From: an uncultured Gammaproteobacteria bacterium
Lineage (GTDB): Bacteria > Patescibacteriota > Microgenomatia > UBA8517
NCBI GenBank assembly: GCA_964429215.1
Contig: CAYSAY010000004.1
Coordinates: 8,421-72,420 of the forward strand
DNA length: 64,000 bases
Direction of reading: 5' to 3'
In this document: positions 15,120 to 16,246 of the stretch, piece after piece
Position numbering within the stretch: position 1 is the first letter of the stretch
Layout of the letters: the number at the start of each line of letters is the position of its first letter
Translations under genes and position numbers: made by a program
The notes under the pieces: generated by a model
Databases searched by the model: none
Told to the model about the DNA's origin: nothing
What the model saw: only the letters and a program-made list of their open reading frames with translations

Positions 15120-15168
15120 ACAGTGATTATTCTTACAAAATGCTTTCGTATCATATCACTTGACTTTG

Positions 15169-15185
15169 CGTATCATTATGATACG
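15169..15185. promoter_or_regulatory. perfect palindrome CGTATCAT-T-ATGATACG (operator candidate) directly upstream of the Fic gene, with a related half-site CGTATCAT at 15147-15154
   Basis: Read directly from sequence; overlaps a TTGACT -35-like hexamer at 15160-15165. Confidence 0.45.
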
Positions 15186-15193
15186 ATAATTAT

Positions 15194-16246
15194 ATGAATG
15201 ATATAAATCTTAACAATAGACAGGCTCAAATACTTGAAATTGTTGCGTTGGATGGCTTTTCTCGTGATGAAATATCTCAAAAACTAGTGCTTGATAGACA
15301 AATTACCAAAATAACTTTAATTAGAGATTTAAATTATTTAATTAAAGCTGGAAAATTAAAAACTGAGGGGATAGGAAGAGGAATAAAATATAAATCTAAC
15401 GAGCGGAAAATATTAAGAGTTATTAATAGTGATAAATATTTTGCCGAAAATTCTGCTACTAGAAAAAATATAAAGTCAATTTTTAATTTTAAAGTATTTA
15501 ATGAATTAAATAAACTTTTTGACGATGTTGAAAAGAAAAAAATAGAAAATAATTTAATTAATTTGAGTAGTGTCAAAAGTAAATTAGACCCATCACTCTT
15601 TAAAAGGGAGATAGAAAGATTTACTGTTGAGTTTGCCTGGAAGTCATCAAAAATTGAAGGTAATACTTATACACTACTTGAAACAGAATCTTTAATAAAA
15701 AATGCAAAAGAGGCGGTTGGCAGGTCAAAGTACGAATCAGAAATGATTCTAAATCACAAAAAAGCAATTGATTTCATATTGGACAACTCTAATTCTTTTA
15801 AAAAATTAACTATAGAAAAAGTAATTGAATTACACAGTATTTTAATTAAGAATTTGGAAGTTACAGAAGGAATAAGAAACGGTGCAGTCGCAATTACAGG
15901 CACAGATTATGTCCCTATGTCTGATAATGTAGATTTAAAAAATGCTTTATTGAAAATGATTGACTGCATAAATAAATCAGATTTTCCTTTAGAAAAAGCA
16001 TTAATTGCACTAAGCATGGTTACATATATTCAAGCCTTTTTTGATGGCAATAAAAGAACTGCCAGAACTTTGGCAAATGCAATTTTATTAAGTAATGACT
16101 ATTTGCCCCTATCATATAGGGATATTGATGAGATTGATTATATTAAAAATATGATTTTGTTTTATGAGCAGAGTACACTTTTTGGAATCAAGAAGATGCT
16201 GACTAATCAGTTTGAATTTACTCAAAAGAATTATTTTAAGATTTAA
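15194..16246 (+). CDS. Fic-family protein with N-terminal HTH and degenerate active-site motif
   Basis: SSKIEGNTYTLLETESLI Fic hallmark. The motif position reads QAFFDGNKRTAR where canonical is HPFxxGNGRxxR, so the catalytic His is replaced by Gln. Confidence 0.7.
   Translation: MNDINLNNRQAQILEIVALDGFSRDEISQKLVLDRQITKITLIRDLNYLIKAGKLKTEGIGRGIKYKSNERKILRVINSDKYFAENSATRKNIKSIFNFKVFNELNKLFDDVEKKKIENNLINLSSVKSKLDPSLFKREIERFTVEFAWKSSKIEGNTYTLLETESLIKNAKEAVGRSKYESEMILNHKKAIDFILDNSNSFKKLTIEKVIELHSILIKNLEVTEGIRNGAVAITGTDYVPMSDNVDLKNALLKMIDCINKSDFPLEKALIALSMVTYIQAFFDGNKRTARTLANAILLSNDYLPLSYRDIDEIDYIKNMILFYEQSTLFGIKKMLTNQFEFTQKNYFKI

Follow-up and report, generated by a model that had tools for sequence, protein, structure and literature searches.

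A winged-helix Fic protein family with a conserved histidine-less motif and a predicted 22-bp-phased operator at its own promoter

The stretch of DNA analyzed here (the window) comprises 64,000 nucleotides of contig CAYSAY010000004.1 (positions 8,421 to 72,420; assembly GCA_964429215.1, GTDB lineage Patescibacteriota). At 15194..16246 on its forward strand it carries an intact open reading frame (ORF) of 350 amino acids (aa), here termed wHTH-Fic(Q/NKR), whose product is predicted to join a winged helix-turn-helix domain (wHTH) at its N-terminus to a class II Fic domain whose motif is a variant. Sequence comparisons strongly support recognition by the wHTH of GTATCA half-sites at the gene's own promoter and, because the operator is conserved, phased at 22 bp and co-varying with the recognition helix, repression of that promoter by the protein. 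Autoregulation, which an initial annotation of this DNA had proposed, is thus strongly supported by comparison. We further consider it fairly probable that the protein is a stand-alone autorepressor in which a His-less, strongly constrained Fic pocket binds a ligand or a target.

Domain architecture and the variant Fic motif

The Pfam Fic model (PF02661) matched residues 205–298 of the window protein with 47.1 bits (cut-off 24), and it matched each of the 61 aligned family members (61/61) as well. None of the NCBIfam models scored above its own cut-off for the window protein; the Doc model TIGR01550 (DOC_P1) reached 17.4 bits, below its cut-off of 38.65. Human FICD was the top match when PDB sequences were searched with phmmer (E 1.7e-12), and, in a look for a solved member of the Q/NKR clade, the nearest PDB chains were FICD and other class II Fic proteins, none being nearer than about 24% identity in a set whose motifs were read in part. 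An AlphaFold2 model built with 61 homologues (mean pLDDT 91.8, pTM 0.88) places an N-terminal winged helix (helices 8–16, 24–30 and 39–51; strands 55–58 and 65–68) before an all-helical Fic body. Because Pfam, the FICD alignment and the AlphaFold2 model agree, we assign to the window protein the predicted architecture given above. The wHTH (aa 1–70; 15194..15403, + strand), with its recognition helix at aa 39–51 (15308..15346, +), is conserved across the family, and members gave weak Pfam matches to FUR, Penicillinase_R, HTH_DeoR, PadR, HTH_11 and MarR_2. The N-terminal HTH of the initial annotation accordingly reappears in the model as a winged helix.

In class II Fic proteins, the final Arg of the Fic motif is salt-bridged to a Glu that blocks productive ATP binding. 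The phmmer alignment pairs SSKIEGNT of the window protein with TVAIEGNT of FICD, which belongs to the inhibitory helix bearing Glu234, and thereby locates the class II inhibitory-helix motif S151-S-K-I-E155-G156 at 15644..15661 (+). SSKIEGNT had initially been taken for the Fic hallmark; it is instead an instance of the (S/T)xxxE(G/N) inhibitory-helix motif of class II. Alignment with the flap region of FICD likewise defines a flap, or target-docking, segment, GIRNGAVAITGTDYVP, at aa 226–241 (15869..15916, +).

The variant Fic motif itself, Q280-A-F-F-D-G-N-K287-R-T-A-R291, is encoded at 16031..16066 (+). YIQAFFDGNKRTAR pairs with YIHPFIDGNGRTSR of FICD in an unambiguous stretch of the phmmer alignment, and therefore Q280 occupies the position of the catalytic His363 and K287 that of the second Gly, confirming the two substitutions as they had first been read. 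The window motif, QAFFDGNKRTAR, fails the canonical AMPylase pattern HxFx(D/E)GNGRxxR in that it has no catalytic His. Two other His residues are invariant in the family. H214 was considered as a compensating residue and rejected, since it matches a His that canonical FICD also has and so is no substitute for His363; H188, the second of them, aligns beside FICD His268 in the helix that follows the inhibitory helix. By alignment, the protein retains the Asp and the final Arg of the motif along with its phosphate-binding loop, and likewise both the inhibitory Glu and the flap.

In all this the window gene is an ordinary, typical family member. Its 120 best homologues, at 46–100% identity, belong to Woesebacteria, Gottesmanbacteria, Roizmanbacteria and other Patescibacteria; the motif has the form Q-x-F-x-[DG]-G-N-K-R-x-x-R in 117 of them and H..K in one. 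Relatives are encoded in at least 596 stretches of GTDB species-representative genomes. The 80 GTDB loci that were kept span Patescibacteria, Bacteroidota (including Prevotella, Bacteroidales, Flavobacteriaceae and Cyclobacterium), Gastranaerophilales, Cloacimonadota and others, and their 76 readable motifs comprise 75 Q..K and one H..K; plasmid-borne members occur in Bacteroides finegoldii, Rhizobium and a Paracoccaceae bacterium. An exhaustive HMMER scan for family members over 1.84 billion representatives returned 167 clusters (50% identity) with E <1e-30 and 1024 with E <1e-10. When 150 representatives of 50%-identity clusters were inspected, the pattern matched 114 (113 Q..K and one R..K); 14 of the 36 that it missed were aligned by hand, and the Gln was kept in 11 of these 14. 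A sister group of longer proteins (420–470 aa) reads Q-P-F-x-D-V-N-K-R.

Hundreds of homologues, with 40–93% identity, can be aligned with the window protein over its entire length, and 49 columns of the alignment are invariant. In the 61-sequence alignment, invariance extends to Q280, G285, N286, K287, R288 and R291 of the motif, to E155, G156, N157 and T158 of the inhibitory helix, and to R228, I234, G236 and P241 of the flap. Because motif, inhibitory Glu and flap are invariant across the family, we read the pocket as being under strong purifying selection, that is, as a selected variant site and not as a product of decay. The earlier description of a degenerate, silenced Fic domain therefore holds in part: the His is indeed absent, but the site is invariant family-wide and not decaying, and a loss of all catalysis is putative.

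Two side observations concern individual members. The His is restored and the Lys kept (HPFxDGNKRxxR) at locus L074 and in one of the 120 homologues. In addition, the annotated coding sequences of two plasmid-borne genes (L082, on the B. finegoldii plasmid, 3016..3927; L083, on Rhizobium pT136c, 3268..4263) begin past the wHTH, while the tblastn matches at both begin upstream of the annotated starts and the upstream DNA of L083 seems, on translation by eye, to encode a wHTH-like stretch, which points to starts that were mis-called or to frameshifts.

A predicted operator at the gene's own promoter

Directly upstream of the gene lies a perfect 8-1-8 palindrome, CGTATCATTATGATACG, at 15169..15185 (+), confirming the initial annotation on this point. 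Its arms, half-sites B and C, read CGTATCAT-T-ATGATACG, with the core GTATCA-N3-TGATAC. The palindrome does not overlap the −35-like hexamer TTGACT (15160..15165, +; a consensus match), as had been stated, but starts 3 nt past it, fills the 16-nt spacer and overlaps a −10-like hexamer, TACGAT (15182..15187, +), which is preceded by a TG at 15179-15180 in the manner of an extended −10. The additional half-site that had been described, half-site A, is present (CGTATCAT, 15147..15154, +), but the gap to the palindrome is 14 nt and not 15, and the informative spacing is the 22 bp from its start to the start of the palindrome's left arm. A decayed half-site D, ATGATAT (15198..15204, +), falls on codons 2–4 (M-N-D-I), 20 bp past arm C and not 22 bp. 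Given that the −10 box stops 6 nt short of the ATG and that no Shine-Dalgarno sequence was seen, the mRNA is probably leaderless or nearly so.

The palindrome alone is not significant; its significance comes from its position, from the third copy at 22 bp and from its conservation in relatives. The window contains 24 palindromes whose arms measure 8 nt or more, compared with about 8.5 in Markov simulations, and a promoter scan did not rise above shuffled sequences (12 matches vs 9.5). The 8-mer CGTATCAT occurs four times in the window, where 0.93 copies are expected, and three of the four lie within 39 bp. The only perfect copy of the operator in the window is the one at the gene's own promoter. 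Near-matches at 3312 and 59486 were rejected as further operators, as they lie within coding sequences (an 867-aa ORF and a 380-aa ORF); a 350-aa ORF beside 59486 we take, from its sequence, to encode MreB and not a paralogue, no family search having been run on it.

To compare the operator among relatives, the upstream regions (90 nt) of 77 genes of the family were aligned. The same palindrome follows directly on a TTGAC-like hexamer in many Patescibacteria loci, and a TTGAC/TTGAT hexamer stands at the equivalent position in 40 or more relatives. Where the palindrome differs, both arms change together (CGTCTCA/TGAGACG, CGTAACA/TGTTACG, CCTATCA/TGATAGG and TTGTATCA/TGATACAA), with compensatory cores GTCTCA/TGAGAC, GTAACA/TGTTAC, CTATCA/TGATAG and GTACCA/TGGTAC. 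A relative with 61% identity (L206) carries CGTACCAT-T-ATGGTACG, and Bacteroidota members have four GAGCT(C)A sites instead, two in each orientation. A perfect palindrome whose arms measure 8 nt or more is found in 26% of the upstream regions, as against 1.8% of shuffled or random windows.

The sharpest operator signal is the 22-bp phasing. A locus shows on average 2.75 recurrences of an identical 6-mer at exactly 22 bp, compared with 0.02 in controls, a more than 100-fold excess, and no enrichment of such recurrence was found in the upstream regions at 21 or 23 bp. The site at −22 (half-site A) is common to L206 and to a relative with 93% identity (L205), with differing flanking bases. On the other side of the palindrome, 45 of the 48 relatives that share it with the window have a further ATGATACG exactly 22 bp past the right arm. 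Where the ATG falls 10 nt past the palindrome, this +22 site makes up codons 2–4 (ATG AAT GAT ACG), as it does in most relatives (among L086–L202); the overlap would account for the conserved N-terminus M-N-D-T, which thus appears to be constrained at the level of DNA. The N-terminus is free to vary where the fourth site is upstream of the ATG. At the Paracoccaceae plasmid locus (L084, pLA6_011), whose protein is a 471-aa member of the sister group (QPFDDVNKRVSR), four direct TTGCGCCTA-like repeats at 21–22-bp spacing lie upstream of 2947, a phasing of the 22-bp type with direct and not inverted symmetry.

The type of half-site tracks residues of the recognition helix (aa 37–46). GTATCA goes together with S-[KR]-[IV]-T-[IV]-[IV]-R-D-L, GTAACA with [ST]-[KR]-M-T-[IV]-[TS]-R-D-L, GTCTCA with S-K-[AP]-T-L-A-R-D-L, CTATCA with S-x-P-T-L-N-R-D-L, AGCTCA with S-Y-A-T-L-K-R-I-L, and GGCTCA with S-[DP]-A-T-x-K-R-[LI]. 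Met is found at position 40 in all six GTAACA loci (6/6) and elsewhere only at L032, which has mixed GTTGCA/GTAACA sites; T41 and R44 never vary. Mutual information with the half-site class is highest at positions 39, 40 and 43 (1.5–1.6 bits vs a permutation maximum of 0.8), but shared ancestry inflates such statistics, and helix positions outside the recognition helix also beat the permutations, with 1.2 bits, both of which count against the autorepressor reading. Despite the inflation by ancestry, the peak falls where bases are read by a wHTH.

Metagenome contigs were also scanned for the 17-mer CGTATCATNATGATACG, giving at least 120 matches. Among the matches listed, a full family gene lies immediately 3' of 42 of 120 copies, and wHTH or Fic fragments adjoin 10 more (52 of 120 in all), an adjacency far above chance for a rare family. 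At L116, L178, L203, L114, L198 and L183, the operator and the first ~10–20 codons (MNDTQVN.RQ...) are followed by stops or unrelated sequence; such truncated remnants suggest frequent loss or replacement of family genes. At L094 (8090–8140) and at L169, which is identical in sequence, the palindrome and the +22 half-site end 2 nt before a non-Fic ORF for a 198-aa P-loop protein (MKKIIGFTGKKQSGKDS...); the arrangement may reflect another target of the repressor or the capture of a promoter.

Proposed mechanism and competing explanations

We suggest that transcription would proceed from TTGACT-16-TACGAT and, to judge from consensus and spacing, start at or beside the ATG. The winged helix would bind the GTATCA half-sites, B and C over the spacer and the −10 box and A 22 bp upstream. 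A symmetric pair of protomers may occupy B and C, with site A two helical turns off on the same face of the DNA, and together the protomers would lie over the spacer and the −10 box, in relatives over the start codon as well. Binding as a dimer or a higher oligomer would then occlude RNA polymerase and repress the protein's own synthesis. The Fic domain, lacking the catalytic His, is unlikely to be a canonical His-dependent AMP or phosphate transferase. More speculatively, the most probable role of its pocket is to bind a nucleotide-like ligand and/or, through the flap, a target protein, and the domain could be either the effector end of the protein or a switch that sets DNA binding. Going one step further, the His-less pocket might be the first Fic-fold sensor of a transcription factor, or might support a His-free chemistry based on Gln, Glu and Lys; we offer this as a tentative idea that we would not expect to hold. 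In its sensor variant, a nucleotide, an alarmone or a modified target protein could switch the 22-bp-phased oligomeric repressor.

The gene is a self-contained, stand-alone unit, because it has no conserved neighbor and the window holds no second perfect operator. Among the 77 loci no conserved gene neighbor was found, the largest shared cluster comprising six, and no adjacent Phd-type antitoxin gene was conserved. The 131 flanking ORFs match 109 Pfam families, mostly housekeeping and none seen more than three times, and neither defence nor mobile-element genes are enriched among the flanking genes. A search of phage records for carriage of the family gave just four weak, partial matches. The search for further operators covered the window and ~180 kb around the genes of 25 relatives; in the latter (~4 kb on each side) it returned two marginal matches in 182 kb.

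Two further points count against a ligand- or target-binding autorepressor. A repressor that targets itself alone lacks a purpose, which would mean that the real output is missing from this account, and an invariant inhibitory Glu together with an intact flap fits a restrained enzyme, and hence residual or novel catalysis. The latter point is at the core of a rival explanation, in which the Fic domain is a working enzyme of non-canonical chemistry within an autorepressed toxin or defence module like CccR or SoFic, and the wHTH merely keeps its dose low. Such an enzyme could be a Doc-like phosphotransferase, its nucleotide inverted by the NKR loop, or a hydrolase or de-modifying enzyme in which Glu155 and Gln280 position a water molecule. 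The invariance of the pocket, of the Mg-binding Asp, of the inhibitory Glu and of the flap would be expected of it, the Glu and the flap being its best arguments, and the Lys fits the signature of Doc, although the DOC_P1 match is weak. The occurrence of the gene on its own in unrelated contexts, its presence on plasmids and the frequency of truncated remnants, as with accessory modules, point in the same direction, as do the two members with a His variant of the motif (HPFxDGNKR) and the residual activity that the 2015 survey notes for other enzymes after mutation of their His to Ala or Gln (PMC4454073). However, every Fic/Doc enzyme studied needs the His (PMC3948609, PMC4454073), and the single motif relative that was tested, which carries QFFFDGNKRTAR, was non-toxic on over-expression in E. 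coli (PMC3948609), although its inhibitory helix was intact in that assay. The flanks, moreover, are mostly housekeeping genes, not enriched in defence or mobile elements. The PADLOC model for SoFic does match the Fic domain (6.7e-18), but the match is confined to residues 116–305 and to part of the model and reflects the generic Fic fold; with such partial, fold-level matches and mostly housekeeping neighbors, membership in a defence system was rejected. Taken as a whole, we regard a working enzyme as possible but unlikely.

A second rival holds that the inverted repeats act as RNA, in a hairpin of a leader or read-through transcript that hides the start codon or terminates the upstream gene. 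The region 15140..15215 is indeed predicted to fold as RNA into nested stems taking in the AUG region (−16.1 kcal/mol, z = −3.2), and the interval from the end of the upstream gene (15119) to the Fic gene contains no predicted terminator. A symmetric four-site array, however, yields nested stems automatically; no U-run follows the stem; and the sites lie between or over the −35 and −10 hexamers, mostly upstream of the predicted transcription start. In most relatives the 22-bp direct repeats have no pairing partner, and the four dispersed GAGCT sites of the Bacteroidota form no compact hairpin. Nor would a hairpin explain why half-sites track residues of the recognition helix. The possibility that the palindrome is part of a leader hairpin, raised as a caveat in the initial annotation, is accordingly disfavored: we rejected the hairpin or terminator, which leaves unpaired phased repeats and protein–DNA co-variation unexplained, and consider it very improbable. 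A decaying Fic pseudogene with a palindrome nearby by chance could appeal to the commonness of palindromes of this size in the window and to a promoter scan no better than shuffles, but we rejected it as the least credible explanation of all in view of the intact 350-aa ORF with its 49 invariant columns, the motif fixed across phyla, the 22-bp repeats and the conserved position, phase and symmetry of the operator.

As to the surroundings of the gene, the flanks in the window encode sensor kinases, an Ig/fn3-like surface protein of 705 aa and a membrane protein that no Pfam model matches. Two genes upstream of the Fic gene, at 11931..12941 on the reverse strand, lies a gene of the RhuM family (PF13310, E 6e-103), and at L096 the same 17-bp palindrome (~1895–1911) lies ~100 nt 5' of a RhuM-like ORF; this proximity could be a coincidence or a link. 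A GC-rich inverted repeat recurs in the window at 34903..34921, 35986..36002 and 48197..48213 (ACCCCGATTTAATCGGGGT, CCCCGATTCAATCGGGG and CCCCGACTCAGTCGGGG) and may represent terminators or the site of another regulator.

Significance and comparison with known systems

Research on Fic proteins has centered almost exclusively on their roles as AMPylases, kinases and phosphocholine transferases that depend on the His. The family described here is a large, cross-phylum clade in which Gln is fixed at the catalytic position and every other pocket residue is kept, and which had been noted once, in a bioinformatic survey of 2015, without architecture or function. The motif clade (Doc clade D2) and autoregulating Fic-wHTH proteins (CccR, SoFic) were already known. 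New here, as predicted from sequence, are the clade's N-terminal winged helix, the 22-bp-phased operator at its own promoter and the co-variation of operator and recognition helix; a limited literature search found no description of an N-terminal wHTH, a 22-bp operator or a helix-operator code for the Q/NKR clade. The interest of the family rests on these family-level regularities and on the question of what role a conserved His-less pocket plays. Now that a predicted DNA site, putative specificity residues and candidates for the switch (Q280, K287 and E155) are defined, the family is experimentally tractable, and cultivable hosts include Prevotella sp. KH2C16 (L047), Cyclobacterium sp. 1_MG-2023 (L067) and the host of the Bacteroides finegoldii plasmid. 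If the sensor or the His-free chemistry proved true, the family, which occurs in several phyla, would constitute a class of Fic proteins with a new function, and its helix-operator code would be a readable one.

Khater & Mohanty 2015 (PMC4454073) defined "Doc clade D2" by the motif Qx[F/Y]x[D/E][G/V]NKR in 45 sequences, which they described as "usually single-domain" and bacteria-only and to which no function was assigned. The motif is the same as that of the window protein (Q-A-F-F-D-G-N-K-R, aa 280–288), and its G/V alternative corresponds to the sister group of 420–470 aa. The N-terminal wHTH, the class II inhibitory helix and the conserved operators are absent from the account in PMC4454073. 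Compared with that description the family is also far larger, with the 167 clusters and at least 596 GTDB matches found here.

Doc of phage P1 (phd-doc) is a protein of ~126 aa that is not known to have an inhibitory helix of its own and is neutralized and co-regulated by a separate antitoxin, Phd. As in the window protein, Lys replaces the loop's second Gly (N-K-R), but Doc keeps the catalytic His, which the window protein does not. Owing to the Lys of its N-K-R loop, ATP is inverted and Doc acts as a kinase (as cited in PMC4454073), and Doc is without a flap (PMC4454073), whereas the window protein has one. The window protein further differs from Doc in scoring below the TIGR01550 cut-off (17.4 vs 38.65) and in having no conserved partner gene; of the Doc toxin motif HxFx(D/N)(A/G)NKR it shows the NKR loop but not the His.

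NrtR, in which a Nudix-like domain is joined to a wHTH, and PurR of B. subtilis, in which a phosphoribosyltransferase-like domain is, are inactive enzyme folds that serve as transcription factors. They resemble the logic proposed here in combining a wHTH with an enzyme-derived pocket that has lost catalytic residues and binds a nucleotide-type ligand. Their folds are unrelated to Fic, however, and they have defined regulons and adjacent targets, whereas here the own promoter is the only visible target. BepC of Bartonella keeps the His and has a different motif substitution. This Fic protein is reported to act by recruiting a partner, GEF-H1 (PMC7842960), and it is a secreted effector of eukaryotic cells with no DNA-binding domain, unlike the window protein.

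The closest parallels to the regulation proposed here are Fic proteins that carry a wHTH themselves. CccR of Yersinia pseudotuberculosis (PDB 7XUX) represses its own promoter via inverted repeats near the −35 and −10 elements (PMC9755527), SoFic binds its own promoter (bioRxiv 10.64898/2026.07.09.737422), and CbFic2 is a DNA-regulated Fic-wHTH protein (PMC10628234). In all three the Fic domain is N-terminal and the wHTH C-terminal, the reverse of the order in the window protein, and all three, which show the canonical motif HxFxDGNGRxxR, are active as AMPylases (of FtsZ, EF-Tu and histone H3), whereas the window protein is without the His. The operators differ as well: CccR has 10-bp boxes set 26 bp apart, and the family described here has a compact palindrome flanked by sites phased at 22 bp.

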